Below, piece by piece: positions 1-34,310 of a stretch of DNA of 59,269 nucleotides (position 1 is its first letter; each line of letters opens with the position of its first letter). The translations under genes were made by a program, and so were the position numbers. The notes below the pieces were generated by a model that was not told the origin of the DNA, did no database searches, and saw nothing but the letters and a program-made list of their open reading frames with translations. Source of the stretch: Patescibacteria group bacterium (GTDB lineage Bacteria > Patescibacteriota > Patescibacteriia > UBA9934); the NCBI GenBank assembly GCA_018062825.1, contig JAGORL010000003.1:138333-197601 (forward strand), written 5' to 3'.

Positions 1-139
1 CGCCGTCGACGTCCTTCACGGCGATGCGCTTGATCTTCGTGTTGTCCACGATGCCGACGAAGGCCGTGGAGTCGAAGTCCGCGATCGCGAGGAAGAGGGC
101 GAGGGGGGCCTTGAGGAGGCCGAAGAGCTGAGTGCGCAT
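1..139 (-). CDS. Hypothetical protein, N-terminal part only (gene runs off the left edge), G+C-rich
   Basis: ATG at 139-137 (minus), open to the window edge. Translation starts MRTQLFGLLKAPLALFLAIADFDSTAFVGIVDNTKIKRIAVKDVDG. Strong G/C third-position bias unlike neighbouring genes. Confidence 0.5.
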   Translation of the reverse strand, partial: MRTQLFGLLKAPLALFLAIADFDSTAFVGIVDNTKIKRIAVKDVDG

Positions 140-208
140 GGTTGAAGGTACCCTGTGACAGTGGCCTGGTGGCCGTTGGTTTGCGCCCTGCGTGAGCAAA
201 GCCGCGAA

Positions 209-237
209 ATTGTGCCAGGGTTAGCGTAAAGTGTCAA
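209..237 (-). promoter_or_regulatory. Sigma70-like promoter (TTGACA-17-CACAAT) for the edge gene
   Basis: The minus strand reads TTGACA (237-232), a 17 nt spacer, then CACAAT (214-209), about 70 nt upstream of the ATG at 139. Confidence 0.45.
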
Positions 238-275
238 GTGTGAAGGGAGTAGCGAGTAGTAAGTAGGGAGTAGTG

Positions 276-313
276 TAAAAAAAAGAGCACGCGGCGGTTG
301 CCGGTGCTCTTTT
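276..313. terminator. Bidirectional intrinsic terminator
   Basis: A-run, then GAGCAC..CGGC-GGTT-GCCG..GTGCTC hairpin, then T-run. It lies just downstream of the stop of the minus-strand dehydrogenase gene. Confidence 0.7.
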
Positions 314-328
314 TAGCTGTTATTAGCC

Positions 329-1360
329 TTATTTTTTGGTTTTCTTGGCTTTAGTCTTTTTGCTCTTGAAAAGTGACATGTCGACGGCGTTCGGAGCCTT
401 TTTACCTGAGATAAAAGCGAGAATGTTCTCGGCGGCCACGCGGCTCATGGCTTGGCGGGCGCCGACGGTGGCGCTTGCTGTGTGGGGCGTTAGGATGACG
501 TTGGGGAGCTTTCGTAGCTCAAGGGTGTCCGATGGATCGCAATCAATGAGTGGCTCGCATTCAAAGACATCAAGTCCGGCGCCAGCGATTTCATTTTTCA
601 TGAGCGCTTTGATGAGCGCTTTTTCATCAACAATGGGGCCGCGAGCGGTGTTGATGAGTAAGGCAGTCTTTTTCATGCTCGCTAACTCCTTGGTGCTGAT
701 GAGGTGGCGGGTCGAGGGGAGGAGTGGGATGTGCAGGCTAACGATATCGGCGTTTTTTAGAAGTTCAGTCTGTGAGACGCGTTTGGCGCCGTACTTTTGT
801 TCTAAGGTTTTGTTTGGTGAAAGATCGGTATAGATGACGTTTACGCCAAAGCCGTCGTGCATGCGACGAGCAAGGGCGGTGCCGATAGCGCCGGAGCCGA
901 TGATACCGAGCGTTTTTCCATGAATGTCTGAACCAAGTAGTAATTGTGGTCCCCAGCCTTTGTACTTGCCGGCGCGTGCGAATTTATCTGTTTCTACAAC
1001 ACGGTGCGCTAAGGCAAAGATAAGAGCGATAGCGTGCTCCGCGACGGCCTCTGAAACTTCTAGAGCTGGAGTGTTTGTAACAGTAATGCCACGCTCCATA
1101 GCGGCGCGTAGATCGATGTTGTCAAAGCCGACAGCGTAGTTTGCGATGAGCTTCAGGTTTGGTGCGGCGTCCATTACTTCCGCATCTATTTTATCTGTTA
1201 GTAACGAAAGTAAGACGTCTGCATGCGCTACGCCGTTTAAAAGATCTTTACGAGAAATACGATTATCACCTTTTGGAATGGTGATCTTCAGACCCTTTTT
1301 TGCTTTTAGCATTTTTAGGCCTTCGTCGGGAATTTCTCGAGTGACAAAGATATTTTTCAT
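329..1360 (-). CDS. D-isomer-specific 2-hydroxyacid dehydrogenase (glyoxylate/hydroxypyruvate reductase-like)
   Basis: NAD-binding GxGxxG (GIIGSGAIGTALARR) and conserved C-terminal LTPHTASAT motif. The ORF opens at 1387, but the ATG at 1360 (MKNIFVTREIP) is preferred because 1387 abuts the upstream terminator. Confidence 0.8.
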   Translation of the reverse strand: MKNIFVTREIPDEGLKMLKAKKGLKITIPKGDNRISRKDLLNGVAHADVLLSLLTDKIDAEVMDAAPNLKLIANYAVGFDNIDLRAAMERGITVTNTPALEVSEAVAEHAIALIFALAHRVVETDKFARAGKYKGWGPQLLLGSDIHGKTLGIIGSGAIGTALARRMHDGFGVNVIYTDLSPNKTLEQKYGAKRVSQTELLKNADIVSLHIPLLPSTRHLISTKELASMKKTALLINTARGPIVDEKALIKALMKNEIAGAGLDVFECEPLIDCDPSDTLELRKLPNVILTPHTASATVGARQAMSRVAAENILAFISGKKAPNAVDMSLFKSKKTKAKKTKK

Positions 1361-1383
1361 ACGTAGTGATTGTGCAAATTGTA

Positions 1384-1414
1384 ACATAAAACATCGCTGA
1401 CACAGCGATGTTTT
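1384..1414 (-). terminator. Intrinsic terminator after the 1413..2147 gene
   Basis: The minus strand reads CATCGCT-loop-AGCGATG followed by TTTTATG. Confidence 0.6.
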
Positions 1415-2147
1415 ATTCCAGACAAAAGCGTCGAAGTTCTTGATCTGTTAAAAGCGTTTGACGTTCATAGGTTCCGATCCAGATCGTGACGTTGTAGCAG
1501 CGACTATCGGCGTCCCAGTTTCCTGCTTCTAGCGACTGTGGTGATTCGGGATTGCTTACTAGCCATTCTGAACTACTGAGATTTTGACTGACGAGTGATC
1601 GACCGGTGATGAGGTCAAATATTTCGATACGGCCTTGGCCGGTTGGTCGGCCAGAGGAGGTGACGTCATGGACGGTTGTTATTGTTACGTACTCTTCATT
1701 TGGTGATAGCGCGTTTATATCTCCGGCGGTATTTATGACGGATGGACCGATGACTCCTGTTTCAACATTGAGCGGATAGACCTTTAAAAGTGGCAATATT
1801 GAGTCTACAACTGCTTGAACAAATATTGTACCCGTGTAGCGTGATTGGGGGACGGCGTAGGCGCTGAAGTCGGCGACGTCGTCTGTGAGTAGTGATTCGT
1901 AGATGACGCGCGTTGGGTTACCGGAATCGTCTACCTCCACAATTTTGGCGCTTGCTCCTTCAATGATGGTTTGTACTTTGGGTGGGGTAGTGCTTGATGG
2001 CGTTGTTGTAGTGGCGCTCGGCGTTACTTGCGTTACCTCACCTGCAAGAATGGCGCGCAGTGACATGGCGCTTAATGCAAAAAACACGACCAACAGCGCG
2101 GTCGCTCCGATAAAGAGCGCGGCGAGGTAGCCGTGTTTTGCCTCCAT
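1413..2147 (-). CDS. Hypothetical membrane-anchored protein with a Thr/Ser/Pro-rich linker
   Basis: 244 aa ORF with an N-terminal hydrophobic helix (YLAALFIGATALLVVFFALSAMSL) followed by TTTTPSSTTPP. No recognisable catalytic motif. Confidence 0.55.
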   Translation of the reverse strand: MEAKHGYLAALFIGATALLVVFFALSAMSLRAILAGEVTQVTPSATTTTPSSTTPPKVQTIIEGASAKIVEVDDSGNPTRVIYESLLTDDVADFSAYAVPQSRYTGTIFVQAVVDSILPLLKVYPLNVETGVIGPSVINTAGDINALSPNEEYVTITTVHDVTSSGRPTGQGRIEIFDLITGRSLVSQNLSSSEWLVSNPESPQSLEAGNWDADSRCYNVTIWIGTYERQTLLTDQELRRFCLE

Positions 2148-2156
2148 AGTTTCTAC

Positions 2157-3140
2157 TTAGCGAACTTGGCGCACAATGACGCGCTCAAGGGCCTTTTTGT
2201 TTGGCCATGCCTTGAGTATACCAGCCTTCGCACCAAAGTGCTGAATGACATTCTCGGCGTTTAGCGTTCCGATTTTTAATGCGTCACTAAGGGTGAGTCC
2301 TTTCACAAGTCCAGCCACTGTTCCAGAGCCAAAGGCATCACCAGCACCGGTGCGTGAAATTGATTTTTTGCCGGTTGTTTTTACAAAGTAGGTGCCGGTG
2401 TCATCAATGGCGGCAGCGCCATTTGGTCCATCGGTAACAATGACGACTGGTGAAGTGATTTTTTTTAGCGCTTTGGCGAGTTCAACCGGATCTTTCTGTT
2501 TTGATTCAAGTAGCGTTTGAGCTTCCTCGGTATTTACAATGGTGACGGTGGCATTTGCGAGCGCTTCTTTGCAGAGGCGGAGTTGCTTTATTTCACCCAT
2601 CCCTGGGTTTACCGCAATCACGACTTTTTTTGCCTTAGCGCGTTTTGCGATGGTGCTTAGAAGTTCGGCATTTCCACCAAGCGAGGTTACGTAGATTGCG
2701 GTTGTATCAAAACAAGCGGGGGAGAGGTCCGCATTTTTGAAGGAAGCAGAGGCACCGCGATAGGTGAGTACACTTCTTTCTCCGTTTGGAACGGTGAGTA
2801 GCACACTTGTGCCGGTTTGTTCTTTTGAAACTTTTTTAATGAGTCGGGTTTCGATTCGGCGCTTTAAAAGATCGTCAACGATATCTCGACCGATTGCGTC
2901 ATCTCCGATGCGTGCACAAATAGCGGTGGTGTTACCGAGGGCGGCAAAGGTTGCGGCGGCATTGGTGGCGCCACCGCCCGAAGCTATTACGAGTTTTTCA
3001 ACACCGATTTTTGAGCCAAGAGCTACACACTCTCCAAGACCACCGGCGAACTGGGCGCTTCGGATAACTTGAAAAGCTTCTGAGAGCAGGAAGATATCTT
3101 GAACGGCAGCGCCAATTGTAACGACGGAGAATTGAGGCAT
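2157..3140 (-). CDS. PfkB-family carbohydrate kinase (ribokinase-like)
   Basis: C-terminal PfkB signature TGAGDAFGSG and N-terminal GG motif region. The ATG at 3140 (MPQFSVVTIG) lies 5 nt after the upstream stop. Confidence 0.8.
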   Translation of the reverse strand: MPQFSVVTIGAAVQDIFLLSEAFQVIRSAQFAGGLGECVALGSKIGVEKLVIASGGGATNAAATFAALGNTTAICARIGDDAIGRDIVDDLLKRRIETRLIKKVSKEQTGTSVLLTVPNGERSVLTYRGASASFKNADLSPACFDTTAIYVTSLGGNAELLSTIAKRAKAKKVVIAVNPGMGEIKQLRLCKEALANATVTIVNTEEAQTLLESKQKDPVELAKALKKITSPVVIVTDGPNGAAAIDDTGTYFVKTTGKKSISRTGAGDAFGSGTVAGLVKGLTLSDALKIGTLNAENVIQHFGAKAGILKAWPNKKALERVIVRQVR

Positions 3141-3145
3141 AGTGA

Positions 3146-3979
3146 TTACTTTGTTGCACGTTCCCAAAGTTTTACATACTCAAGGAAGTTTTTAGCGATA
3201 GCGGCAACGGTAGCTTTACGATCAGCTTTTTTATTTTGAAATTTCTTGAGCGGCTCAAGAAATACGGTACGACCAACAGCGAAACCATGAACGTGACCGC
3301 TTTCGGCGGCGAGTTTAATCCAACCTTTGACAGTGGCATTTGATTCACCGCGACCAAGAATGATGAGTGGCACTTGGGCGATTTCCTGGACTTTTTTCCA
3401 GCCAGATGATCGAGCGAGTCCTTCTAGTTTCCAAACAGTTGGCCAGACCCCAGCAGCGTGGAATTCTTCAATGGCTTGGCAGATCTGTTTTGTTTTATCA
3501 CCTTTGCCACATACGAGAATCTCTAGCATGAATGGTAGATTTTGATCGATACAGTAATCTGAAAGTTTCTTGAGCTTTGCTCGTTGCCTTTTATTTACTT
3601 TTTCATTTCCTACCTCATAGCGTACCAGCGCCTTTGCAAAATCGGCGTGTAGTTTTTTTAAAGCTGGTCCGAATTTTGTGCCGTGTAAAAAGGTGAAGGC
3701 ATCGGTGCCGCTTGCTTCGGTGGAAACGATAATTGGAATTTTTCGTTTGTGAGCATCTTTTAAAATTGGCAATCCCAGTTCTTCATCAACGAGAACGCAC
3801 CAATTGGCATCTTTTGCGATGTCGCTGCCTTTTGCAAAAAGAAAGGCTTCGTAGATGATTTTTTTAAGTTCGGTGGCGGCTTTTTTATCAGCACCTTTGA
3901 GGGGGAATGTGGTATTGAAGAGTTCTTTTGCAAAGCCGCTGCGGTGATCAAATGGAAGTACGAAGAGGGGGAGTTTCAT
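3146..3979 (-). CDS. TIM-barrel aldolase-like protein (DUF2090 / tagatose-bisphosphate-aldolase-like)
   Basis: N-terminal FVLPFDHRSGF resembles the LacD/IolC-associated aldolase-like domain, and the gene lies between two PfkB kinases. The ATG at 3979 is preferred over the GTG at 4006. Family assignment is from memory only. Confidence 0.5.
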   Translation of the reverse strand: MKLPLFVLPFDHRSGFAKELFNTTFPLKGADKKAATELKKIIYEAFLFAKGSDIAKDANWCVLVDEELGLPILKDAHKRKIPIIVSTEASGTDAFTFLHGTKFGPALKKLHADFAKALVRYEVGNEKVNKRQRAKLKKLSDYCIDQNLPFMLEILVCGKGDKTKQICQAIEEFHAAGVWPTVWKLEGLARSSGWKKVQEIAQVPLIILGRGESNATVKGWIKLAAESGHVHGFAVGRTVFLEPLKKFQNKKADRKATVAAIAKNFLEYVKLWERATK

Positions 3980-4015
3980 AGGGGTGAAGGGAGTAGGAAG
4001 TAGCACGTAGGGTGA

Positions 4016-6320: not shown

Positions 6321-6433
6321 TCTACACGAAAGCCGCACTTTATTGTAGTTTTGGGCTTTTATCAAAAAAAGTCTCTTTGGACTTGCCAAAAAGACGTTTT
6401 TTGTATTATATTAGCCATGAAAGGAGGTGTGCT

Positions 6434-6667
6434 TTGGAGAGTGTGCGAAACCTTCGTGAAGAGATTTCTGAGTGCGCGGAGCGGCTCTCGGATCTGGGTC
6501 GGAACATGCAGGATGCCCTCCATGATTTCAATTCCAGGCTGCTCAGCCTGGCGGATCGGGTGGGCAGGCGCAAGGACATGGGTCAGGCGATTTCTCGTAG
6601 CGACTACGGGAAGGTGATGGACCTCCTCAACGAGATCGAGGAGGAACTGGGCGAGGTCGCGGCGTAG
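6434..6667 (+). CDS. Small helical/coiled-coil-like hypothetical protein (about 77 aa), G+C-rich
   Basis: Strong SD AAGGAGG (6421-6427) lies 6 nt before TTG 6434. An intrinsic terminator follows directly. GC3-rich codons contrast with the flanking genes. Confidence 0.55.
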   Translation: MESVRNLREEISECAERLSDLGRNMQDALHDFNSRLLSLADRVGRRKDMGQAISRSDYGKVMDLLNEIEEELGEVAA

Positions 6668-6684
6668 CGGTGCGGTCGTTTCGT

Positions 6685-6715
6685 ACGAGGGGCAGTTGCC
6701 CCTCGTTATTTTTTT
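6685..6715 (+). terminator. Intrinsic terminator of the small ORF
   Basis: ACGAGGGGCA-GT-TGCCCCTCGT hairpin followed by TATTTTTTT. Confidence 0.75.
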
Positions 6716-7695
6716 CGACGAATTACTTTTTGTGCAGCTTTGATGATCCAAGGCGCTGTTAACTTGTAGTGCTCGAGAAGTTCGTTTGGTTCGCCGGATT
6801 GACCAAAGACGTCTGCAAGGCCGATACGCTCCACGGGAACTGGGAAGGTGCTCGTGACGAGCTCCGCAATGGCGCCACCGAGGCCGGCGGCGGCTTGAGC
6901 TTCTTCTACGGTGACGATCGCTCCACATTCTTTCGCGGCTTTGACGATAACTTCTTCATCTAGCGGTTTGACGCTGACGGCGTTGATCACACGAGCTTCA
7001 ATGCCTTTTTTCTTTAATTCGTGTGCAGCCTTGAGTGCTTCGTAGACAAGTGGGCCGCAAGCAACGATGGCGACGTCTGTGCCATTATGAAAGACTTCAG
7101 CTGTACCAATTGCAAAGGGGGTTTTATCAGTGGTGAAGACGGGGGTTTTTTCACGGGCAAAGCGAATATAGACCGGGCCATCATGTTCAACCGCGGCGAT
7201 GGTGGCTTTTTCGGTTTCTTTAGCATCACATGGCACGAGCACTGTCATGTTTGGTAGAACGCGCATGAGAGCGATGTCTTCTACCATTTGGTGGGTTGCG
7301 CCATCGGGACCCACTGAAACGCCAGCGTGGGCGCCAGCGATTTTTACCGGCATTTCTTGCAAGCAGGCGGTAGTGCGAATCTGCTCCCAGTTCCTACCGG
7401 GAGAGAAGCAGGCGTAGCTTGCAATGAAGGGGATTTTTCCTTGAAGTGCCATGCCGGCAGCGATAGCGGCTAGTGCTTGCTCACTGACACCCATTTGAAT
7501 GAAGCGCTCTGGGAAGGCTTTTTTAAAGGCTTCTGTGCGTGTTGACTCGGTAAGATCGGCACAAAGCACAACAACGCGCTCATTTTTTGTGCCAGCAATA
7601 ACAAGACCGCTTCCAAAACCGTCACGGGTAGGAAGTTGGGGGATGGAGTCCATGAATATTTTGCCGGAAAGTTTGGCGGATTTTGGTACGCTCAT
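6706..7695 (-). CDS. Transketolase, C-terminal (pyrimidine-binding plus C-terminal domain) subunit
   Basis: 329 aa. Typical split-transketolase B chain (GFGSGLV..., MGVSEQ, GPDGATHQ). Confidence 0.9.
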   Translation of the reverse strand: MSVPKSAKLSGKIFMDSIPQLPTRDGFGSGLVIAGTKNERVVVLCADLTESTRTEAFKKAFPERFIQMGVSEQALAAIAAGMALQGKIPFIASYACFSPGRNWEQIRTTACLQEMPVKIAGAHAGVSVGPDGATHQMVEDIALMRVLPNMTVLVPCDAKETEKATIAAVEHDGPVYIRFAREKTPVFTTDKTPFAIGTAEVFHNGTDVAIVACGPLVYEALKAAHELKKKGIEARVINAVSVKPLDEEVIVKAAKECGAIVTVEEAQAAAGLGGAIAELVTSTFPVPVERIGLADVFGQSGEPNELLEHYKLTAPWIIKAAQKVIRRKK

Positions 7696-11291: not shown

Positions 11292-14183
11292 ATGTCCGAG
11301 CCCAAGAAGATGACCCACGCCCAAGCTGAACATGAAGTATTAGCCTATTGGGATGCCCATAAGGTATTTCAGCGTTCAGTCGATGAGCGACCAAAGAGCA
11401 AGCCGTATACGTTTTACGATGGTCCGCCGTTTGCAACGGGCTTGCCGCATTATGGTCATTTGCTGCAATCAATCGTGAAGGACGCGGTGCCGCGCTATTT
11501 TACGATGCGTGGTTACCGAGTTGAGCGTACGTGGGGTTGGGATTGTCATGGCTTACCAATTGAGAATTTGGTTGAGAAGCAGTTTGATTTAAAGAGCCGG
11601 AAAGATATTGAGGAATACGGCGTTGGTGCTTTTAATGATCGTTGTGAGGCGCTTGTGATGGGGTATGCCAAGGAATGGAATACCGTTATTCGCCGCTTGG
11701 GGCGCTGGGTTGATATGGATAACGCCTACAAGACCATGGACACACCGTTCATGGAGTCTATTTGGTGGGCGTTTAAGGAGCTTTATGAGAAGGGCAAGAT
11801 TTATGAGGGGCATAAGGCGATGCAGCTTTGCCCACGCTGCGAAACCACACTTTCTAACTTTGAGGTAACGCAGGGTTACGCTGACGCGACTGATATTTCG
11901 GTAACGGCGAGCGTGGAATTAACTAGTGGGCCATGGAAGGGCGCTAAGGCACTTCTTTGGACAACCACGCCATGGACGCTTCCTGGAAACGTGCTTTTGG
12001 CAGTTGGTGCTGACATGGAATATGCGCTTGTTGAACATGATGGTGTTCGTTACGTGCTCGCTAGTAGTTTGATCGACAAGGTTTTTAAGGGTAAGGAGTA
12101 TTCAATTGTAGAAAAGGCTTCTGGTAGTACGCTCACGGGATCAACGTATGATCCTTTGTTCCCTTACTTTAGAACGCACGCGAATGCTTTCCGAGTAGTT
12201 TCCGCAGACTTTGTAACGGATACTGATGGAACGGGCATTGTGCACATTGCTCCTGGTTTTGGTTCTGATGACATGGCGCTTGGTGAGGCGGAAAATGTAG
12301 CTCCGATCATCCACGTGAAGGAGAATGGTCAGTATGTTGATGAGGTAGCAGTGCCGCTAACTGAAGAGGGGTATGCGGTTACAGGTGTGCCGATGAAAGC
12401 TAAGGGGGAGTACTCCGTGATTGATATTCAAATCATTAAATGGTTGGCGCATAAGGGAAAGTTGTTTGCCAAAGAGAAGTTTACGCATAGCTACCCACAC
12501 TGTTGGCGCTGTGATACGCCGCTTTTGAATTACGGAGCGAGTTCCTGGTTTGTGCGGGTGAGTGAGATGTCTGAGGACCTTGTGAAGAGTAATGAGCTCA
12601 TTCACTGGGTACCGGATTCCGTGAAGCATGGTCGTTTTGGGAAGTGGCTTGAGGGCGCGCGCGATTGGGCGATTTCTCGTTCACGTTTTTGGGGTACGCC
12701 GCTTCCGGTATGGCGTGCGGAAGATGGCGAGATTCTCGTTATTGGGAGCGTTAGCGAGCTTGAAGGGTACGTTGGCCATAAGGTAACGAACTTGCATAAG
12801 CACGTGGTTGATAGTTTGGCGATTGAAAAGAACGGAAAGACATTCCGCCGTATTCCTGAAGTTTTGGATTGTTGGTTTGAGTCTGGCTCTATGCCATATG
12901 CTCAGCTGCATTACCCGTTTGAGAATAAGGAGCTATTTGAGCAGCGCTTGCCGGCGCAGTTTATTGGCGAAGCACAAGATCAGACCCGTGGTTGGTTCTA
13001 TACGCTCCACGTGCTTTCTAATGCGCTTTTCCATAAGCCGGCGTATGAGAATGTGATTGTGAGCGGCATTATTTTGGCGGAAGATGGCAAGAAGATGAGT
13101 AAGCGCCTCAATAACTACCCTGATCCGATGGAGGTGATGGAGAAGTATGGTGCTGATGCGGTGCGCTATTACATTATTTCCTCGCCGGTTGTTCGTGGTG
13201 AGAATCTTCGCTTTAGCGAGGCGGGTGTTGATGAGATTTCAAAGAAGTTTATTGCGATCTTGAAGAATGTCGCCGCTTTCTACTCGCTTTACAGCGAACA
13301 TGATGACGGCCGAAAGCCAAAGGGGGAACATGTGCTTGATGCGTGGATTTTGGCGCGTATGTATGAAACGCTCGCGCAAGAAACGAAGGCAATGGAAGCT
13401 TACGAGCTACCAGACGCGGCACGTGTGCTTCAGCACTTCGTGACAGATCTTTCTACTTGGTACGTGCGTCGCAGTCGTGATCGTATGAAAGAGGCGGGAG
13501 AGGATCGAGCGGAGGCGCTTGCGACTTTACGAACCGTGCTTGAGACTTTTGCAAAGATGCTTGCGCCGTTCATGCCGTTTTTGGCGGAGATGGTATACCG
13601 GGAGATCGGAGATCGGGGATCGGAGGAGAGGGTTTCTGTGCACCTTGAAATGTGGCCGGACGTGAATACAGAACTTGCTCAATCATCTGTCCTTGAGGCG
13701 ATGGGGGAACTACGTGGACTTGTTTCTCGTGGTCTTGAGGCGCGCGAGGCAGCTGGAATGCCAATTAAACAGGTGCTTGCTTCAGCTTCTATTACGTTAC
13801 CAGAGGGTGAGCTCTCAGAGGCGTACGTTTCCGTCTTTAAGGACGAAGTGAACGTAAAAAATGTATTCATCCAGAAGGGTGAGTTAGCGGTTGCCCTTGA
13901 TTTCACGTTGACCCCGGAGCTTATCCGTGAGGGCATGGCGCGTGAGGTAACGCGTAAGGTGAATGGCTTGCGAAAGGAGACGGCGCTCACTATTCAACAC
14001 CGTATCGCACTTTCTATTTGGAGTGATGACGCTGAAGTGCAGAAGATGTTTGAGGAGCATGGTGACGCGATTGCTGCTGACACCTTGAGTGCGTCAATTG
14101 AGTTTGGAAAGATCACTGAACCGGTTGCACAGGCAAGTTTTAGAGTTGCTGAGCATGAGGTGTGGGTGGGGTTTAAGGTGTAG
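11292..14183 (+). CDS. ileS: Isoleucine--tRNA ligase
   Basis: 963 aa with HIGH-type motif (PHYGHLL), KMSKRL, and a WCISRQ-like segment (WAISRSRFWG). Confidence 0.95.
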   Translation: MSEPKKMTHAQAEHEVLAYWDAHKVFQRSVDERPKSKPYTFYDGPPFATGLPHYGHLLQSIVKDAVPRYFTMRGYRVERTWGWDCHGLPIENLVEKQFDLKSRKDIEEYGVGAFNDRCEALVMGYAKEWNTVIRRLGRWVDMDNAYKTMDTPFMESIWWAFKELYEKGKIYEGHKAMQLCPRCETTLSNFEVTQGYADATDISVTASVELTSGPWKGAKALLWTTTPWTLPGNVLLAVGADMEYALVEHDGVRYVLASSLIDKVFKGKEYSIVEKASGSTLTGSTYDPLFPYFRTHANAFRVVSADFVTDTDGTGIVHIAPGFGSDDMALGEAENVAPIIHVKENGQYVDEVAVPLTEEGYAVTGVPMKAKGEYSVIDIQIIKWLAHKGKLFAKEKFTHSYPHCWRCDTPLLNYGASSWFVRVSEMSEDLVKSNELIHWVPDSVKHGRFGKWLEGARDWAISRSRFWGTPLPVWRAEDGEILVIGSVSELEGYVGHKVTNLHKHVVDSLAIEKNGKTFRRIPEVLDCWFESGSMPYAQLHYPFENKELFEQRLPAQFIGEAQDQTRGWFYTLHVLSNALFHKPAYENVIVSGIILAEDGKKMSKRLNNYPDPMEVMEKYGADAVRYYIISSPVVRGENLRFSEAGVDEISKKFIAILKNVAAFYSLYSEHDDGRKPKGEHVLDAWILARMYETLAQETKAMEAYELPDAARVLQHFVTDLSTWYVRRSRDRMKEAGEDRAEALATLRTVLETFAKMLAPFMPFLAEMVYREIGDRGSEERVSVHLEMWPDVNTELAQSSVLEAMGELRGLVSRGLEAREAAGMPIKQVLASASITLPEGELSEAYVSVFKDEVNVKNVFIQKGELAVALDFTLTPELIREGMAREVTRKVNGLRKETALTIQHRIALSIWSDDAEVQKMFEEHGDAIAADTLSASIEFGKITEPVAQASFRVAEHEVWVGFKV

Positions 14184-14195
14184 GGAATAGGGAAT

Positions 14196-15819: not shown

Positions 15820-15875
15820 TGATTTTTGATGATTATTTGGCTAATATTAGTGTATAAAAATGGGGGTGGGGTATA

Positions 15876-21802: not shown

Positions 21803-21807
21803 AGAAG

Positions 21808-21842
21808 AATGAGGCCTCCCGCGCGGCGGGGGCCTCATTTTA
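21808..21842. terminator. Bidirectional GC-rich hairpin terminator between convergent femAB-like gene and tdk
   Basis: AATGAGGCC-loop-GGCCTCATTTT. Confidence 0.7.
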
Positions 21843-22418
21843 GGTGCCGGGTGGCGTGAAGTGCGCCAGGCACCTAGCGGAGTATTCGGAGTCGCCGACC
21901 TTGATGTGGTTGTCGTCGACGCCGTCTAGCACAAGAAGTTGTGAGTAGTGGGCATCTTGGCCGCAGACGCTGCAGTAGGCGTTCAGCTTGATGACCTTGT
22001 GCGCCATGGCGAGGAGGGCGGCGGTTGTCTCGAACGGCTCGCCCTTGAAAGTGAGGTCGAGTCCAGCGATGTGGACATCGTGTCCGCGGCGCATGAGTGT
22101 GGTGATCACGGTTTCGACGCCATTGCGCGGCGCGAACTGCACCTCATCGATCCCGATGACGGGTCGAACGTCATCGTGCCCGTCTTGTGCATGCACGAGT
22201 TCGAGCAGGTCGGCGAAGGTTGCGAAGGTGAGTGCTTGGAGCTGCGTGCCGGTGCGCGAGCGAGCGAGGGCGCTCGTGCGCGTGTCGCGCTCTGGCTTGA
22301 AGAGCAGGTGGTTGCGTTTTGCGTACTTCAAGCGGCTCAAGCGACGAAGCAGTTCGTCGCTTTTACCCGAGAACATGGGGCCCACGATGAGTGTGAGCGA
22401 CCCGTTTTGATGAGTCAT
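21840..22418 (-). CDS. tdk: Thymidine kinase (G+C-rich)
   Basis: From the ATG at 22418 (GGAGG 6 nt upstream): LIVGPMFSGKSDELLRR (P-loop), IDEVQF, and C-terminal zinc-ribbon cysteines (CSVCG...ARC). Confidence 0.85.
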   Translation of the reverse strand: MTHQNGSLTLIVGPMFSGKSDELLRRLSRLKYAKRNHLLFKPERDTRTSALARSRTGTQLQALTFATFADLLELVHAQDGHDDVRPVIGIDEVQFAPRNGVETVITTLMRRGHDVHIAGLDLTFKGEPFETTAALLAMAHKVIKLNAYCSVCGQDAHYSQLLVLDGVDDNHIKVGDSEYSARCLAHFTPPGT

Positions 22419-22530
22419 GGAAGCCTCCGGGGAGCATGGTAGCGAACTGTATTTTTGTGGCGAGAAAGTTGTGCACACTTAGCGACATTTTACGCACACG
22501 TTATCCACAGAATGGTGCTAAAATAGCACT

Positions 22531-29219: not shown

Positions 29220-30335
29220 CTATTGTTCGAGCATTTTTTGATGCTCTTCGTACTTATTTTTTACGTATGTTTGCAGCTCTTTTTGAAAACGTGCTACCGA
29301 GAACTTTTCGGCATGCGTTTTTATCTGTGCTGGATCCCAGGTGGTTTGTTGGAGGGTTTCAATGGCTTGTGCGAGTGCGTCGGCGTTTTGATCGTTGAAA
29401 AAGATGCCGGTTTTATTTTCTACAACCGTTTCAAGCGCACCGCCACTACGAAAAGCGATAACTGGTCGACCGGCGGCCATTGACTCTACGGCGGTAATAC
29501 CAAAATCCTCTTCATGTGGGTGAAGGAAGGCGATGGCATTTTCGTAGAGCTTTGTACGCTCGGAGTCACTAACGCGACCTAGGAATTCAACAGTTGGTCC
29601 GGACATTTTCTTGAGTTCAGCTTCCATTGGACCGGTGCCAAAGATTTTTAATGGTATTTTTAGCTTGTTAGCCGCTTGAATGGCAAGATCAAAACGTTTG
29701 TAACTGACAAGACGGCCTCCGATCAAAAGATAGGCTTTTTCACCGGTTTGAATCTGGAATTTGTGTGTTTCAACGGGAGGGTAGATTACCGTACTGTTTT
29801 TTTGGTAATACTTCTTGATACGACGTTCAACGTTTTTTGAATTGGCAACAAAAAAATCTACACGTTGTGCGGCGTGCCAGTCCCATGAACGCAATCGACT
29901 TAAGAAGAGGGGAAGTAGCGCCTTTATGAAGTTAGGAAGGCGTAGTTCAGAAACGTAGGAGTGGGTATCTGACCAGAGGTAGCGTGTTGGGGTGTGGCAG
30001 TAGCAGATAGAAATCGCACTTTGTGCTGGAATGGCGCCTTTAGCAAAGGCGCTTGAGGAGGATAATACTACGTCAAAGTCGGAAAGATCGTAGCCCTCGG
30101 TTGCTGCTGGCATGAGGGGTAGAAGCCAACGCAAGAAACGTGGAGCGAAGGGAATTTTTTGGAGAAATGAGCTGACAACTGTGGCATCTTTAAAATCTGG
30201 ACCGATGGAGTTCTCATCGTATACCAAGGTAAAGATTGGTGCCTTTTCATATGCCTCGTGCATGGCTAAAAGAACGCGTTCTGCGCCGCCGTGTTGGACA
30301 AGATGATCATGGATGAGCGCGACACGCATATTCAC
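29220..30335 (-). CDS. Glycosyltransferase family 4
   Basis: EDFGITAVESMAAGRPVIA motif; 371 aa. Confidence 0.8.
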   Translation of the reverse strand: MNMRVALIHDHLVQHGGAERVLLAMHEAYEKAPIFTLVYDENSIGPDFKDATVVSSFLQKIPFAPRFLRWLLPLMPAATEGYDLSDFDVVLSSSSAFAKGAIPAQSAISICYCHTPTRYLWSDTHSYVSELRLPNFIKALLPLFLSRLRSWDWHAAQRVDFFVANSKNVERRIKKYYQKNSTVIYPPVETHKFQIQTGEKAYLLIGGRLVSYKRFDLAIQAANKLKIPLKIFGTGPMEAELKKMSGPTVEFLGRVSDSERTKLYENAIAFLHPHEEDFGITAVESMAAGRPVIAFRSGGALETVVENKTGIFFNDQNADALAQAIETLQQTTWDPAQIKTHAEKFSVARFQKELQTYVKNKYEEHQKMLEQ

Positions 30336-30353
30336 TGAATCGACAGGGGGTCT

Positions 30354-31775
30354 TTAGTAGGCTCCTTTACGTAAGAGTACCGCAATTGGGGTTTTTACGA
30401 GAATAATGAGGTCGAGCCAGGGGCTCCAGTTCTCAATATAGTGCATATCAAGCTTTACCTCATCTTCAAAGGCAAGATTAGCGCGCCCACTGATTTGTGC
30501 AAGCCCAGTAATCCCCGGTTTGATGGTGAGGACTCGACGTTCGTGTGGTTGGTACTTTGCTACCTCCTCAGGCAAATGTGGCCGAGGGCCCACAAGGCTC
30601 ATTGAGCCAATGAGGACAAGATAGAACTCCGGTAGCTCGTCAATGGAGTATTTTCGAATAAATTTACCGATACGAGTTACGCGCGGATCATCCTTGAGTT
30701 TAAAAAGCGGGGTTCCAGAGCGATCGTTGCCATGTTCTTCTATGAATTTTGGATCAAAGCGCTTTTGGTGGGCGTTTTTGATCATGGAGCGAAATTTGAA
30801 ATAGGAAAATGGTTTTCCTCCTTGGCCTACGCGTGTTACTGGTTGGCCGTCTGGAAGGGTACGGAAAAGTATTCCGCCTGGTTGCTCGATGAATAAGGCG
30901 ATTGCGGTAACGATTTGAATTGGTAAGGTAATGATAATGAGGACAAGCGAGATGATGATGTCAAAAGCGCGTTTGTAAATAGCACCCCAGCCATCAAGTG
31001 GGGTTTTGGGTACTTCAATGATCGGTCGGCCGCCGAAATTATGGACAATTGGTTTTAGCGTGCTACCGGGAAAGAGGTCTGGGGCATAGTAAAACGCAAT
31101 GTGTTCGGTGTCGGCGAACATTTTCATTTTTGCTACCTCAAATTTATCAGCGTGCGTATTGGCAAGAAAAATACCATCTAGCCCACGTGTTTTTTTGAGG
31201 TGTTGGAGTTTTTCAGCGGTTTCTTCGGTAAAGTGAGCTGTTTGTAAATGTACGCGATACCCCAGGGTTGGGTTTTGTAAAAACCATGTTGCAAGATCGT
31301 TGCCGATGTTTGTTTTGCCGATGATAACTACGTTGTTTACGTTGAGGCCAAAGGTTTTTAATAGGCGCTGACAGTAGCGAATACTTAAACGACCGGCAGT
31401 GATGTAGGCGATTGATAGGCCCCAAACTGCTAAGACGATAAAACGAGAATCAAAGAGCTCTCGGGAAAAGAAGGCGATCGCAAGGACGCAGGCGATGCCG
31501 GCAGAGTTTGCGAGGAAGATACGGGATAGTTCGGTTGCTACTTTTGGTGGACGCACTGAGTAAAGACCAGCGATTGCAAAGACACCCACGTATACGATGG
31601 CTAGACCAAGAACTATTGGTAAAAAATCTCCGAAAGGGAGGTTGAATTGCACAGGCTTTACGTTTGTTGAGAGCGGAGCAAAGCGAATGGCGTAGGCGGT
31701 AACAGCGGCAGCCACGAGGAGGAGATAGTCTAGCGGGACAAGAGCGCCCGTAAACATGAGATCGATTCGCTTCAT
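30354..31775 (-). CDS. Polyprenyl-phosphate sugar-phosphate transferase (WbaP/EpsB-type bacterial sugar transferase)
   Basis: Multi-TM N-terminus, then C-terminal KRAFDIIISL...KFRSM...DELP...GSMSLVGPRP, the bacterial sugar transferase signature. Confidence 0.8.
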   Translation of the reverse strand: MKRIDLMFTGALVPLDYLLLVAAAVTAYAIRFAPLSTNVKPVQFNLPFGDFLPIVLGLAIVYVGVFAIAGLYSVRPPKVATELSRIFLANSAGIACVLAIAFFSRELFDSRFIVLAVWGLSIAYITAGRLSIRYCQRLLKTFGLNVNNVVIIGKTNIGNDLATWFLQNPTLGYRVHLQTAHFTEETAEKLQHLKKTRGLDGIFLANTHADKFEVAKMKMFADTEHIAFYYAPDLFPGSTLKPIVHNFGGRPIIEVPKTPLDGWGAIYKRAFDIIISLVLIIITLPIQIVTAIALFIEQPGGILFRTLPDGQPVTRVGQGGKPFSYFKFRSMIKNAHQKRFDPKFIEEHGNDRSGTPLFKLKDDPRVTRIGKFIRKYSIDELPEFYLVLIGSMSLVGPRPHLPEEVAKYQPHERRVLTIKPGITGLAQISGRANLAFEDEVKLDMHYIENWSPWLDLIILVKTPIAVLLRKGAY

Positions 31776-31810
31776 ACTTTGCTGATTGTAGCACGATTGT
31801 TAGGGCGAGA

Positions 31811-31841
31811 AAATGAAAAACCCCGTAGAAACGGGGTTTTT
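31811..31841 (-). terminator. Intrinsic terminator of rnpB
   Basis: The minus strand reads AAAAACCCCGT-TTCT-ACGGGGTTTTTC. Confidence 0.8.
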
Positions 31842-31843
31842 CA

Positions 31844-32361
31844 GCAGGCGGTGCCGATAAGCCGAATTTTGTCTCACTTCTTATTGCGACGCAATGAGAA
31901 GTCAGGACGACCATCTCTCTTGTTCTTGTATTGCTACAAGACTTTAGCGAGCGACCGAATCTTGCTCTTGCACCAAAACGGGTTTGCCGCCACTGCATGT
32001 CACCATGCAGGGAGTGTGGTTGCACGCTAGTTACCTAGCGCACCTTCCGCACACGTTTCACTTTTCTTCACCTTGCTTACGCGAGGGTGAATAGTCTGTC
32101 TCTGTTGCGTACTACGTTACCGTTTCCAGTAGGCAGTACCCCGAAAATTCTTTCGTTTTCTCGAGACTTTCCCTAGGTTTGCCTCGAAAGTGAGGGATAG
32201 CTGCGTGCAGCCAATCCAATCCCTCACCACCGAAGGTATGCCTGGTCGCCGTTAGCGACGTTTTTTCTCATTGTGCCGTTGCCGACACACGGGTGTTCGG
32301 ACTTTCCTCACCTTTTCACCCTTTTTCAAGGATGGAGGGCGCGGTCGTCTGGCACGCCTGC
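31844..32361 (-). ncRNA. rnpB: RNase P RNA (bacterial type), unusually long at about 518 nt
   Basis: The minus strand contains GAGGAAAGTCCGAACAC (P4 5' strand) and GACAAAATTCGGCTTATCGG (P4 3' strand, ACAGAA..CGGCTTA-like). P1 pairs GCAGGCGTGCC with GGCACCGCCTGC. The -10 TGCTAATAT sits exactly 7 nt upstream of the 5' G. Confidence 0.85.
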
Positions 32362-32368
32362 GGGTTTT

Positions 32369-32400
32369 ATATTAGCAGAAAAAGAGGGGAAAGTAAAGAC
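32369..32400 (-). promoter_or_regulatory. rnpB promoter (TTTACT-17-(TGC)TAATAT)
   Basis: TAATAT at 32374-32369 (minus), TGC at 32377-32375, and a -35-like TTTACT 17 nt upstream. Confidence 0.65.
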
Positions 32401-32532
32401 AAACGCCCTAGTCCGAAGACGAGGGCGTCGAGTGTCACCCAGCAGTCGCACGAGGGCGTTGCTGGCACGTATATTTTGGCCGGGCGGCCAATGTGGAGGT
32501 AGTGATGTAGGAACAGTCGACCGGGCGGTCGA

Positions 32533-33012
32533 CTAGCTGATGGCGGCGCCGATGAAGCGCGCGAGCGCCTCGGTGCTGATCTGGTTCGTGATCTGGTCCT
32601 GGAGCTCGATGAACGCGTTGTTCACCGAGTCGCGCTTCGCTTCGCTCGACACACAGTAGAACATCACGCTGCGAGCGCGACGCACGAGCTGGCTCGCTTC
32701 GCTTGCGGAGAGCGTGTCGTGATTCGGGCACTCCTCGGGGTAGCAGAGGCGCGTGGCCTCGACGAGCATCTTGCCCTTCGGCAGGGCGTCGATGCCGTTG
32801 CGCTTCAGCGAGTCCGTGAGAACCTGGAACCGATCACGGTCCGCCTGACTGGTCAGGTTGTTGGCCGGGCTGTTCTTCTTGAACGCTTCCTGGGACTTGC
32901 GCGCGCGCTCCTGCTCTGCGAAGAGCATGGGCGGTTGCGACTTGCTCGTGCGGGCCGGGCGGCGTTCACGAGGCACGGGGGTGGCGGTGGGGGTGACAGA
33001 ACGGAGTTCCAA
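32533..33012 (-). CDS. Hypothetical protein (159 aa), G+C-rich orphan with basic disordered N-terminus
   Basis: TTG start with GAGGT 5 nt upstream and a GC3-biased frame. Promoter TTGCTA-16-(TGC)TATACT at 33061-33088. Confidence 0.55.
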   Translation of the reverse strand: MELRSVTPTATPVPRERRPARTSKSQPPMLFAEQERARKSQEAFKKNSPANNLTSQADRDRFQVLTDSLKRNGIDALPKGKMLVEATRLCYPEECPNHDTLSASEASQLVRRARSVMFYCVSSEAKRDSVNNAFIELQDQITNQISTEALARFIGAAIS

Positions 33013-33060
33013 GGTTGACCTCTGATTGGACGTGACGCACCCGGGAGTGGATGCGTACGA

Positions 33061-33088
33061 AGTATAGCAGAATGGCTTAAATTAGCAA
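33061..33088 (-). promoter_or_regulatory. Promoter TTGCTA-16-(TGC)TATACT
   Basis: The minus strand has TTGCTA (33088-33083) and TATACT (33066-33061). Confidence 0.6.
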
Positions 33089-33101
33089 GAAAAGGGGTTA
33101 G

Positions 33102-33153
33102 GGCCCACTTCATCCTAGCGGACTACGTTAGGACTGGAAAGTAGGAAGTAGGG
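33102..33153 (+). repeat. Dispersed intergenic repeat, degenerate copy C
   Basis: GGCCCACTTCATCCTAGCGGACTACGTTAGGACTGGAAAGTAGGAAGTAGGG aligns with copies A and B. Confidence 0.65.
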
Positions 33154-33196
33154 TGAAAAGAAGACCGCCCCAGTTCCGTGAGAGGAATGGGGCGGT
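33153..33196 (-). terminator. Intrinsic terminator after 33225..33884
   Basis: The minus strand reads ACCGCCCCA-loop-TGGGGCGGT then CTTCTTTTC. Confidence 0.65.
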
Positions 33197-33224
33197 GCGG
33201 GTGGTGCTGTCTTGAGGACGCTGT

Positions 33225-33884
33225 CTACTTGGCGGAGGCGACCATCTCCGCCGGTTCCGGCGAGAGGAAGTCCTGCCGGCGGGCGGCGAGCTCCTTCTCG
33301 CGGCTCGAGCGGGCGTTCACGCCGCAGAAGCAGTCGGCGAAGAGGAGGATGTCGCCGTCCTGGAGGTGGCGCTGCAGCATGACATCGTCGCTCGAGAGCC
33401 GGACGAGGTCACCGCGGATCAGGGTCTGGGTGATCTGCTCGACGACCGCGAGGGTCATGGCCTTGTTGATCGAGGTGGCGGTGCAGAACTTGGCCCACTG
33501 AGTGCGCCAAGCGTTGTGCGCCTTGAGCTTCTCGCCATCCATGCGGACGGCGCGCTCGGTGGCACCGATGATGTCGCGGATGCGCGAGTCCAGGAAGAGC
33601 TCGGGCGAGTTCTCGATCACGCACTTGATGGTGATCATGGCGCAGATGGCGGGGTGAGGCCGCATGACGTGCGCGACGATCGCGTTCTTCGCGGCGTCGA
33701 AGCCGCGGGCCACGCGCTTCTTGACGGTGGAGGTGCGGACCCGGGTGGTGACCTGGGTCGTCTCCGGTGCCGGGCGGCGCTCGGAGGGGGTGCGGCTCGG
33801 GCCGCGGTGGCCGTGCGGGAAGGAGCGGGCGTGGGCGGCGTGGTGCGATGCAGTCTGCAAGGGACTCTCCTTGTTGAGTTTCAC
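33225..33884 (-). CDS. Hypothetical protein (about 211-219 aa), G+C-rich orphan with basic His/Arg/Pro-rich N-terminus
   Basis: Very strong GC3 bias in this frame only. The likely true start is TTG 33860, preceded by AAGGAG. The -10 (TGC)TAATGT lies at 33913-33921. Confidence 0.6.
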   Translation of the reverse strand: MKLNKESPLQTASHHAAHARSFPHGHRGPSRTPSERRPAPETTQVTTRVRTSTVKKRVARGFDAAKNAIVAHVMRPHPAICAMITIKCVIENSPELFLDSRIRDIIGATERAVRMDGEKLKAHNAWRTQWAKFCTATSINKAMTLAVVEQITQTLIRGDLVRLSSDDVMLQRHLQDGDILLFADCFCGVNARSSREKELAARRQDFLSPEPAEMVASAK

Positions 33885-33928
33885 GCTTCACCAACCACGG
33901 TAAAGCTCGCGAACATTAGCAGAATATT

Positions 33929-33965
33929 AAAAAAAGAGCAACTCGTGCCGGCGTGGCACGAGTTG
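33929..33965 (-). terminator. Intrinsic terminator after 33971..34249
   Basis: The minus strand reads CAACTCGTGCC-loop-GGCACGAGTTG then CTCTTTTTTT. Confidence 0.75.
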
Positions 33966-33970
33966 GAGCC

Positions 33971-34249
33971 CTATTCGGGGGCGACGGGGGACGATTCAGC
34001 GATCGACCCGAGAGTGGCGCACAGTAGGTAAGCGCCTACGACGCTGAAGCCGAGGATGTTCTGGGTGTTCAGGCTGGCGAGGTCGGCTTGGTGGCAGGCC
34101 AGAAGGATGATGAGTCCGATCGGTGCACCACCAAGTGAACCGAACGTGAAAGCCTTCATGATGGCCTTGTGAGGGACGGGCTGGTCTGCGTGCATTGCTT
34201 CTCGTTGGCGCAAGCGCCGCAAGAATGGATCCATCATGGACGTGATCAC
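33971..34249 (-). CDS. Small membrane protein (92 aa), G+C-rich
   Basis: Two hydrophobic helices (FGSLGGAPIGLIILLAC, ILGFSVVGAYLLCATLG). GAGGTGA SD upstream. Confidence 0.5.
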   Translation of the reverse strand: MITSMMDPFLRRLRQREAMHADQPVPHKAIMKAFTFGSLGGAPIGLIILLACHQADLASLNTQNILGFSVVGAYLLCATLGSIAESSPVAPE

Positions 34250-34263
34250 CTCGTTGTTGTGGG

Positions 34264-34299
34264 AATAAAAACAACCGGACTAGTATGCCCGGTTGTTTT
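34264..34299 (-). terminator. Intrinsic terminator of trpS
   Basis: The minus strand reads AACAACCGG-loop-CCGGTTGTT then TTTATT. Confidence 0.7.
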
Positions 34300-34310
34300 G
34301 TTTTGGTCAA

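Follow-up and report, generated by a model that had tools for sequence, protein, structure and literature searches.

GC-rich gene cassettes in a Candidatus Uhrbacteria chromosome recur at the same loci in sister species, with no high-GC donor detected

What does it mean when a bacterial chromosome of moderate GC content carries short genes with the codon choice of a much more GC-rich genome? In bacteria, orphan genes and recent acquisitions usually have a lower GC content than the rest of the genome, and GC deviation is routinely read as the fingerprint of a donor. The question is raised by a 59,269-nt stretch of contig JAGORL010000003.1 (assembly GCA_018062825.1), called the window hereafter in its full length, which has an overall GC content of 0.492 and belongs to Candidatus Uhrbacteria, a Patescibacteria lineage of the candidate phyla radiation (CPR). 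Eight island genes lie there in six GC-rich blocks, and a preliminary description of the sequence had explained them by repeated piecemeal acquisition from a high-GC donor, possibly an actinobacterial host. We found that three of these genes (tdk, p159 and p211) recur in sister genomes at the same positions and with the same bias, and that no high-GC source could be identified for any of them. Our tentative reading is that the islands are lineage-endemic accessory cassettes at gene-turnover hot spots, whose coding sequences would be kept GC-rich at third positions within the Patescibacteria gene pool.

The bias was measured against 46 backbone genes picked by open reading frame (ORF) length and Pfam content, among them IleRS, ValRS, TyrRS, ArgRS, TrpS, RuvA, FemAB, three GT4 glycosyltransferases, the DUF4012 protein, a sugar transferase, RNase J, transketolase and L19. 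GC contents at the first, second and third codon positions (GC1, GC2 and GC3) of this set are 0.58, 0.40 and 0.47, with a GC3 standard deviation (sd) of 0.058 and a range of 0.35–0.62. Windows of 200 nt with GC above 0.57 cluster at 1–620 (where the true core is 1–139), 6421–7000, 14681–16320, 21781–22460 and 32341–34260, and the eight island genes have GC3 values of 0.72–0.98 (z 4.4–8.8), while their GC1 and GC2 stay within about 0–2.6 sd of the backbone. Sliding windows and gene-wise GC3 agree with the blocks listed in the preliminary description, and the Arg/Pro/Gly-rich shadow ORFs that it reported in the other frames are present. The GC excess is confined to coding sequence and lies nearly all at third codon positions, including a shift of stop codons from TAA to TAG; spacers inside the islands have a GC content of 0.42–0.56, and the 133-nt 5' untranslated region (UTR) of p195 has 0.51. 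All eight genes also follow the local strand skew, with C3 above G3 on the minus strand and G3 above C3 (35 vs 23) in the only plus-strand member, p77. Across relatives, island and local skew correlate (r 0.76), but this is confounded by gene orientation and is suggestive only.

Seven of the eight genes are on the minus strand. At the window end, p46 (2–139; GC3 0.98) is the truncated 5' part of an orphan with a hydrophobic N-terminus. The block around 15 kb holds a small basic ORF (14810–14977; GC3 0.79) and p195 (15070–15657; GC3 0.95), a 195-aa orphan that belongs to a small conserved family characterised by the motifs NRGSYVE, ARYF, GxHGPE and WTWYPG. Further along, tdk (21840–22418; 192 aa; GC3 0.77) encodes a thymidine kinase and lies between FemAB and GT4. 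The largest island, the sixth, contains p159 (32533–33012; GC3 0.88), an orphan with a basic, Pro-rich N-terminus, p211 (33225–33860; GC3 0.95), an orphan with a TTG start following AAGGAG, and p92 (33971–34237; GC3 0.72), a small predicted membrane protein. The lower edge of this island is formed by rnpB (31841–32360, minus strand), the class A RNase P RNA, which is a backbone gene. The plus-strand gene p77 (6434–6667; GC3 0.76) encodes a 77-aa helical orphan. The frame of the small basic ORF remains open on to 14666 through a terminator-like hairpin at 14816–14789, so its true end is uncertain; in a related strain, paired +1/−1 indels preserve its frame. A 219-aa form of p211 was discarded, as an exact-protein lookup gave no match and the true start yields 211 aa.

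Only tdk could be assigned to a known family. It matches Pfam PF00265 over all profile positions (1–176 of 176) with an E-value of 8.8e-36 and 123.8 bits (cut-off 20.6), matches phrog_592 at 6.5e-37 and carries the P-loop GPMFSGKS, as expected of a thymidine kinase. Pfam and PHROG searches gave no match for any orphan of the window, and an 11-member profile of the p195 family found none in PDB or PHROG; an AlphaFold model of p195 from a three-sequence alignment was unusable (pLDDT 49). For p159, a 243-nt contig with 96% identity covers 32499–32740, the 3' end of the gene, in run X20, which we guess to be RNA; the only other piece found there, in the 20 kb examined, lies in the DUF4012 gene. 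This fragment is a weak hint of p159 transcription.

The mosaic is real and chromosomal, and it is no assembly artefact. Two Logan contigs from another run (L001 and L002; L numbers denote contigs throughout) cover 30179–33142 at 99.0% and 33123–35474 at 99.6% identity, together crossing both junctions of the largest island, and contigs from two further runs (L090 and L091) match 14222–17834 at 100%. In run X1, depth does not differ between islands and backbone (about 10–11 in both), and the junctions lie within single contigs. Also, related strains at 88–93% identity hold the same pieces. The preliminary description had asked for chimeric assembly to be excluded by read continuity and coverage, and every junction examined is spanned by independent wastewater assemblies at uniform depth. 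That fragments of another organism were spliced into the contig by assembly or binning has a negligible probability, as the same junctions were assembled independently from at least five runs, in relatives at 99%, 93–88% and about 80% identity, and as the island edges coincide with promoters and terminators.

The lineage was identified with the 849-aa DUF4012 protein, which retrieved 80 loci among Genome Taxonomy Database (GTDB) species representatives. Those with a specific label are mostly Candidatus Uhrbacteria or Patescibacteria group, and many others are titled 'uncultured Gammaproteobacteria', evidently wrongly; the CPR-type lineage assumed at the outset was borne out. The best match is merely 51–57% identical, so there is no close species representative. 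Metagenome runs with a high share of window words all come from wastewater, and among the runs with small shares are samples from aquatic, biofilm, freshwater and soil sources.

Gene order in the relatives is conserved from IleRS through RuvA–FemAB–GT4–DUF4012 to sugar transferase–rnpB–TrpS, and the islands interrupt this order at recurrent places. The gap between FemAB and GT4 (slot A) measures 110 bp in L007 and is GC-rich and 451–3335 bp long in L006, L008, L009 and L012; the window has tdk in this slot. The gap between the sugar transferase and TrpS (slot B) contains rnpB alone in distant Uhrbacteria, where it measures about 550–640 bp, and extends over 2.4–3.0 kb in the window and in the relatives closer to it (L007, L008, L009, L014 and L063), with 300-nt GC maxima of 0.62–0.72. 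The cargo differs. Other GC3-rich orphans (0.74–0.87) occupy slot A in L006, L008, L009 and L012 and slot B in L007, L008, L009, L014, L016 and L063. Like most island genes of the window they are minus-strand ORFs, typically of 150–320 aa with basic N-termini, or small membrane proteins, and almost none matched Pfam. All-against-all BLASTP and hhalign found no similarity of these slot proteins to the window genes or to each other, except for a weak L007/L063 pair at 23.6% probability in hhalign. An annotation-free scan, in which islets were picked by phase-specific GC windows and strict filters, revealed short GC3-periodic islets to be a common feature of Uhrbacteria loci with moderate GC. Judged from synteny, the FemAB/GT4 and rnpB/trpS slots are gene-turnover hot spots, and the islands are real accessory insertions relative to deeper relatives, in which the slots are empty or hold rnpB only. 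As the preliminary description had noted, mobility genes are lacking: Pfam and PHROG searches of the scanned genes found no integrase, transposase or conjugation gene in or beside any island. The largest island abuts rnpB rather than a tRNA gene.

How long the bias has persisted can be judged from p159. Among 1.84 billion representatives it has a single match, on the sister-species contig L105, where the arrangement promoter–p159–rnpB–sugar transferase is the same as in the window. Between the two loci, rnpB is 95% identical at the nucleotide level, and the sugar transferase is 89% identical in amino acids with a pS of 0.66 and a saturated dS of about 1.6. The p159 proteins are only 59% identical (dN 0.33 vs 0.064 for the neighbour), yet the L105 ortholog has a GC3 of 0.96. 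Of the 42 third-position differences between them, 25 are exchanges between G and C, and codons whose amino acid has changed still end in G or C in 91% and 98% of cases. The promoter region is 87% and the 3' UTR 82% identical, as compared to 50–71% for the coding sequence (CDS), which means that the gene evolves faster than its own non-coding flanks and is nevertheless saturated with GC at third positions.

Similar observations were made for p211 and p195. In 5.8 billion protein clusters, p211 has two homologues, one in a strain at 99% identity and one in a relative at 82% amino acid identity (L003). The latter, a 983-nt JGI contig, retains the promoter and terminator DNA flanking p211, and its ortholog matches in position and in GC3 bias; dN/dS is 0.82 at a dS of 0.13. 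Over p159 and p211, dN/dS is 0.64–0.82, and the orphan proteins change three to five times faster than their neighbours with GC3 still at least 0.88. For p195, protein searches gave two homologues and a pattern search of metagenomes added 13 loci. Its GC3-rich clade consists of the window gene (0.95), L087 (0.91) and L092 (0.80), at 49–59% mutual amino acid identity and each in DNA of 0.43–0.49 GC; the readable neighbours in L087 differ from those in the window. The other family members are on marine contigs, mostly with GC3 near their own background, and several of these contigs look phage-like in that small ORFs follow one another on the same strand and one protein has a SAP/HeH-like tail. 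Outside close relatives, no homologue of p211, p159 or p195 was found among the 5.8 billion clusters or the 1.84 billion representatives, and none of the homologues from protein and metagenome searches lies in a GC-rich context. Scans of viral contigs for p195, p211, p159 and tdk, as well as tblastn of p195 against a phage collection, returned nothing. Beside the p195 homologue of L087, at about 2900–3223, tRNA-like halves seem to flank a GIY-YIG-type ORF, and only the 3' tRNA (3150–3220) was confirmed by Rfam.

The history of tdk differs. Its clade comprises three relatives at 82%, 77% and 67% amino acid identity, beyond which identity drops to at most 48%. Matches beyond the clade are Staphylococcus/Bacillales-like or from Deinococcus, the best Bacillales-like ones being 42–48% identical, and the nearest outside copy examined is compositionally native in DNA of 39% GC. 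In L084, the 77% relative, tdk occupies the same FemAB/GT4 slot with a GC3 of 0.71 against 0.34–0.37 in its flanks, and the flanking genes are 85–88% identical in amino acids to those of the window at a dS of 1.2–2.6. Singleton third-position changes among the four sequences run strong-to-weak (S>W) in 34 cases and weak-to-strong (W>S) in 12. This excess indicates a loss of GC3 in tdk of the kind expected for a foreign gene acquired long ago. We conclude that the composition of tdk, as the older or more strongly constrained gene, is slowly approaching that of the backbone, and that classical horizontal gene transfer (HGT) with amelioration is the better description for this gene.

Do the islands as a whole look like genes from a high-GC genome? 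Their codon choice at GC3 0.95 (CTC, GCC, CGC, GGC, AAG and GAG) does resemble that of genomes of about 70% GC. The other codon positions do not. Pooled over 1024 island codons, GC1 is 0.629 (confidence interval, CI, 0.60–0.66) and GC2 is 0.437 (0.41–0.47) at a GC3 of 0.863, whereas a regression over 66 Uhrbacteria loci, extrapolated beyond their observed GC3 maximum of 0.74, predicts 0.76 and 0.50. The GARP content of the islands, 0.23–0.34, brackets that of the backbone (0.267±0.02). In genomes of 65–72% GC most genes end in TGA, and TGA makes up 40% of the stops in high-GC Uhrbacteria loci. The window islands end in TAG five times, in TAA twice and never in TGA (with the islands of relatives, TAG 16, TAA 10 and TGA 5; n=31), and the backbone has TAA 27, TAG 13 and TGA 6. 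Island stops are the TGA-poor usage of the backbone plus a third-position shift from TAA to TAG, and the islands do not resemble genes native to a genome of about 65–72% GC.

Nor did homology point to such a genome. Orphan homologues are confined to close relatives, and for no island gene did we find an actinobacterial or other high-GC homologue, contrary to the donor and the host proposed in the preliminary description. No identifiable donor is closer than the relatives of the recipient: the closest homologues all lie in sister genomes at the same loci, with the positions matched by L084 for tdk, L105 for p159 and L003 for p211 and with the same GC3 bias, which is largely the situation that the same description had named as speaking against its own proposal. 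Of the repeated piecemeal acquisition it envisaged, the part that stands is that the islands are accessory insertions relative to deeper relatives; a recent or host-derived origin does not, since sister species share the cassettes. Uptake of host DNA piece by piece would fit a CPR bacterium living in wastewater, where high-GC Actinomycetota are common, and the codon choice is compatible with it. Even so, a host donor such as an actinobacterium is highly improbable, given the missing homologues, the Bacillales-like affinity of the outside tdk matches with the nearest in 39% GC DNA, and the lack of TGA stops in the window islands. In addition, one census of HGT in Patescibacteria found transfers mostly within the phylum, with Actinomycetota responsible for only 1 of about 130 inferred transfers into Patescibacteria (PMC12455944). 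Import from a high-GC host genome is not the cause of the islands, and the window no longer gives grounds to name an actinobacterial host.

This leaves three explanations to be weighed. The reading that we tentatively favour, of lineage-endemic cassettes kept GC3-rich within the Patescibacteria gene pool, regards the bias as maintained and not as a fading donor fingerprint, because p159 keeps a GC3 of 0.88–0.96 while backbone silent sites are randomised, because each of the three p195 clade members is GC3-rich in a moderate-GC context of its own, and because stop-codon, GC1/GC2 and amino-acid usage are native-like. From their shared positions, the cassettes predate the split of the current sister species. 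The six blocks sit in gaps between conserved housekeeping operons, and two mechanisms could hold GC3 high there. One is GC-biased fixation, for example biased gene conversion, at recombination-prone slots, with regulatory spacers resisting the bias; it would also account for dN/dS values of 0.6–0.8. The other is that the families have long resided on an unsampled GC-rich, Patescibacteria-specific element and that alleles are swapped via the conserved flanks. Taken as a general statement, namely that in the Uhrbacteria clade a force holds GC3 at 0.86–0.98 in seemingly strongly promoted, fast-evolving slot orphans, in coding sequence only and through speciation, against a backbone of about 0.47, and that this force is either strong GC-biased fixation or a hidden GC-rich mobile pool of Patescibacteria, we consider the proposal doubtful. 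Such a force is what we infer from genes that are themselves resident, syntenic and persistent across species. Several points weigh against the reading that we favour. We know of no bacterial mechanism by which the GC3 of a single gene could rise from about 0.47 to 0.95. The enrichment ends at CDS boundaries, and a regional bias fits this only if the spacers are constrained; they may be, as the p159 flanks are more conserved than the gene. The net S>W change of tdk is that of a classical ameliorating foreign gene, and the distant p195 homologues on phage-like marine contigs imply that at least the p195 family is mobile. Further, orthology of slot contents across more distant species is not demonstrable by sequence, substitution counts come from two to four sequences per gene, and all relatives are short metagenomic contigs.

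Classical HGT with amelioration is a serious rival, although for the islands as a whole we hold it to be unlikely. In this scenario the cassettes were imported at different times from an unsampled high-GC cell, phage or plasmid, placed behind local promoters, and are drifting to the backbone composition, tdk being old and p195 and p211 recent. The codon choice at GC3 0.95, the patchy distribution with slots empty in deeper relatives, the S>W excess and phylogenetic isolation of tdk, the p195 relatives on phage-like contigs, and the documented HGT and genomic islands in Patescibacteria (PMC12455944) all agree with it. It is less easily reconciled with the absence of any orphan family member from GC-rich contexts and of any relative from the viral scans, with the p159 ortholog at GC3 0.96 across a split at which backbone silent sites are saturated, with stop usage unlike that of high-GC genomes, where TGA dominates, and with GC1, GC2 and GARP near the backbone. 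Selection at the codon level, in which very high expression would favour this organism's own G/C-ending codons or stable GC-rich mRNA, would explain why the enrichment is limited to CDS and why near-consensus promoters resembling that of rnpB precede these genes. It also draws on L19, the sole ribosomal protein gene present, which has the highest GC3 of the backbone (0.62, z +3) and whose codon shift from the backbone parallels that of the islands (r 0.60), a comparison that relies on one gene of 114 codons. Nonetheless it is improbable: a GC3 of 0.95 far exceeds that of L19, dN/dS of 0.6–0.8 speaks against the proteins being abundant and strongly constrained, slow-growing CPR bacteria should experience only weak translational selection, and the expression hint is the one small fragment from run X20.

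Comparison with known systems places the islands between several categories. Phage morons, reportedly described by Juhala and colleagues in 2000 and by Hendrix and colleagues, are said to be autonomous promoter–gene–terminator units between conserved genes, often of different composition. The cassettes resemble them in their putative own promoters and terminators, their place between syntenic genes, their distinct composition and their accessory or unassigned function. Unlike morons, they reside in a cellular chromosome among IleRS, RuvA, FemAB, GT4, rnpB, TrpS and RNase J, with no phage genes near the islands and no match in the phage collection or viral contigs. Amelioration of horizontally acquired genes, as Lawrence and Ochman are said to have described it in 1997, is matched by tdk, which is GC3-rich in four lineages (0.64–0.77) with net S>W flux, but not by p159, p195 and p211, which hold 0.88–0.96 despite 41–51% amino-acid replacement and saturated silent divergence in the backbone. 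GC-biased gene conversion has reportedly been found in bacteria by Lassalle and colleagues (2015) and linked to raised dN/dS by Galtier and Duret (2007). High GC3, raised dN/dS, fast proteins, turnover hot spots and a mild rise in GC1 and GC2 are all in line with it, whereas a GC3 increase of 0.4 to 0.5 is far beyond bacterial reports and the adjacent non-coding DNA is not GC-rich: third positions have 0.86–0.95 GC and spacers 0.42–0.56, and the spacers are the more conserved (82–87% vs 50–71% for the CDS). In tdk, moreover, the third-position changes (S>W 34, W>S 12) run opposite to the W>S excess that such conversion would leave.

Replacement-type flexible genomic islands, attributed to Rodriguez-Valera and colleagues, are said to hold differing gene content at the same locus in different strains. 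The cassettes are alike in that conserved flanks enclose non-homologous cargo at a given position in related genomes, but the cargo here is tiny orphans and not glycosylation clusters, and GC deviates upwards. Flexible islands are usually AT-rich, and ORFans, as reportedly found by Daubin and Ochman (2004), are usually AT-rich as well. With respect to the classical signs of a genomic island, the blocks show deviant composition (GC3 z 4.4–8.8) and patchy distribution and lack mobility genes. Closest in lineage are the islands of Patescibacteria (PMC12455944, mSystems 2025), with which the cassettes share compositionally deviant accessory DNA in streamlined CPR genomes, exchange mostly among Patescibacteria and donors that are often unrecovered. 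The window units differ in being 0.2–1.9 kb long with one to three genes and no mobility genes, in a deviation that is almost purely third-position, in slots that are reused across species, and in carrying orphans rather than metabolic or restriction-modification genes. That CPR genomes contain genomic islands and undergo HGT was known before; for GC-rich islets in CPR bacteria or Uhrbacteria, literature searches gave no specific earlier description. What is unusual here is an upward GC shift limited to third positions in CDS, which persists through speciation amid rapid protein change, in slots that recur.

The consequences depend on which process is at work. If GC3 is maintained in place, composition-based HGT calls and the host inference for CPR episymbionts built on them would mislead, and bacteria would have a far stronger local GC-biasing process than documented. 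If instead the cassettes come from a hidden mobile gene pool, that pool would be a discovery target in wastewater and groundwater metagenomes. In either case, GC-rich and not AT-rich orphans would be a signature of gene turnover in CPR bacteria.

Promoter-like and terminator-like sites were found by consensus matching at most cassettes. For p46, a promoter-like site at 209–237 (minus; TTGACA-17-CACAAT with TG) lies downstream of a CTACTCCCTAC repeat block at 240–273. The p77 site at 6383–6412 (plus) reads TTGCCA-18-TATATT, with a terminator at 6685–6706, and the near-consensus promoter of p195 at 15791–15819 (minus) reads TTGACA-17-TGCTATACT, matching 11 of 12 positions plus TG, and is followed by the 133-nt 5' UTR. 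On the minus strand, p159 has a promoter at 33088–33061 and a terminator at 32421–32404, and p92 has a promoter-like site at 34310–34282 and a terminator at 33965–33939. These five genes (p46, p77, p195, p159 and p92) have consensus promoter and terminator matches. For p211, a −10 element TGCTAATGT lies at 33921–33913 (minus). The sites are at the expected places and suggest that each cassette may be its own transcription unit. Two details of that description did not hold: tdk, said to lack a −10 of the TGCTAWNNT type, is preceded by the extended −10 TGCTATTTT at 22528–22520 (minus), and the site at 16641–16633, which had been assigned to the motif, reads TGCTACGAT and does not fit. TGCTAWNNT has 19 matches in the window against 14±4 expected and is not enriched, and many of the matches lie just upstream of genes. 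The rnpB gene itself, at 520 nt against a 367-position model, scores 108.5 bits (threshold 100); its length and low score suggest large insertions.

The block at about 14800–16640 had been listed as a single GC3-biased island. It is GC-rich and p195 in it is GC3-biased, but the sub-block at 15860–16632 (minus), a 773-nt element of 0.57 GC with its own −10, the TGCTACGAT site just mentioned, and a terminator, is non-coding, without a plausible ORF. Codon periodicity is lacking, with a phase difference of at most 0.2 vs about 0.6 in p195, and this ruled out a decayed GC3-rich pseudogene. Its predicted fold has a minimum free energy (MFE) of −311.8 kcal/mol, as compared to −255±9 for shuffled sequences (z −6.3), and the element is about 91% conserved in a related strain. 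A search of 15700–16760 at E≤1 gave no Rfam family, with a single spurious microRNA match. The element is probably a candidate new large structured RNA, and it would be GC-rich for that reason and not as a GC3-biased gene.

Direct repeats, which the preliminary description had not seen, are present. A 68-nt repeat with a GTCCGG...CCGGAC hairpin occurs on the plus strand at 14183–14250 and at 15862–15929, where it overlaps the 3' end of the 773-nt element; the two copies are 85% identical and bracket 14251–15861. A third, partial copy at about 33095–33151 (plus), GGACTACGTTAGG ... GTAGGAAGTAG, lies between p211 and p159. Depth in the repeat is 157 vs about 10 in the flanks in run X1, some 15-fold, many contigs terminate in it, and it is missing at both of the first two sites in related strains. 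Since it is multi-copy and absent from the same sites in these strains, it is a dispersed repeat resembling a miniature inverted-repeat transposable element (MITE), and the idea that the copies are att sites or mark an island boundary was rejected.

The core motif of the repeat is GTAGGGAGTAG, which reads CTACTCCCTAC on the minus strand. Against an expectation of 0.28, the window has 13 occurrences, all of them in plus orientation, at 242–273, 3986–4003, 14180–14250, 14759, 15919, 33141, 47217, 47657 and 54607. The motif is placed directly after terminators or at the −35 position, upstream of island and backbone genes alike, and precedes apparently leaderless genes such as those at 47634 and 14724, and it may serve as a regulatory site. 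An AAA_33 or polynucleotide-kinase-like ATPase of backbone composition is encoded at 14287–14724 (minus), with the dispersed repeat on one side and the GC-rich cassettes on the other; its best family is the phage-type phrog_2071 (1.5e-21), and it may be an older, fully ameliorated acquisition.

Third positions are strongly strand-asymmetric across the window, with T3 0.40, G3 0.30 and C3 0.13 in plus-strand genes and C3 0.36, A3 0.27 and G3 0.13 in minus-strand genes, and the cumulative GC skew climbs unbroken over all 59 kb. A family of 94-nt repeats (65–87% identical) lies at 43903–43996, 44027–44120 and 59171–59264. These repeats and short inverted repeats at 43876–44011 and 44916–45050 adjoin the tRNA genes Ile-TAT, Val-GAC and Ala-GGC. 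The backbone also includes a protein with a T4SS-pilin domain (40348–41844) and a Peptidase_C39-like protein (45165–46217). The tRNA-Ile gene at 43801–43877 has the TAT anticodon encoded in the genome, an uncommon means of reading AUA.

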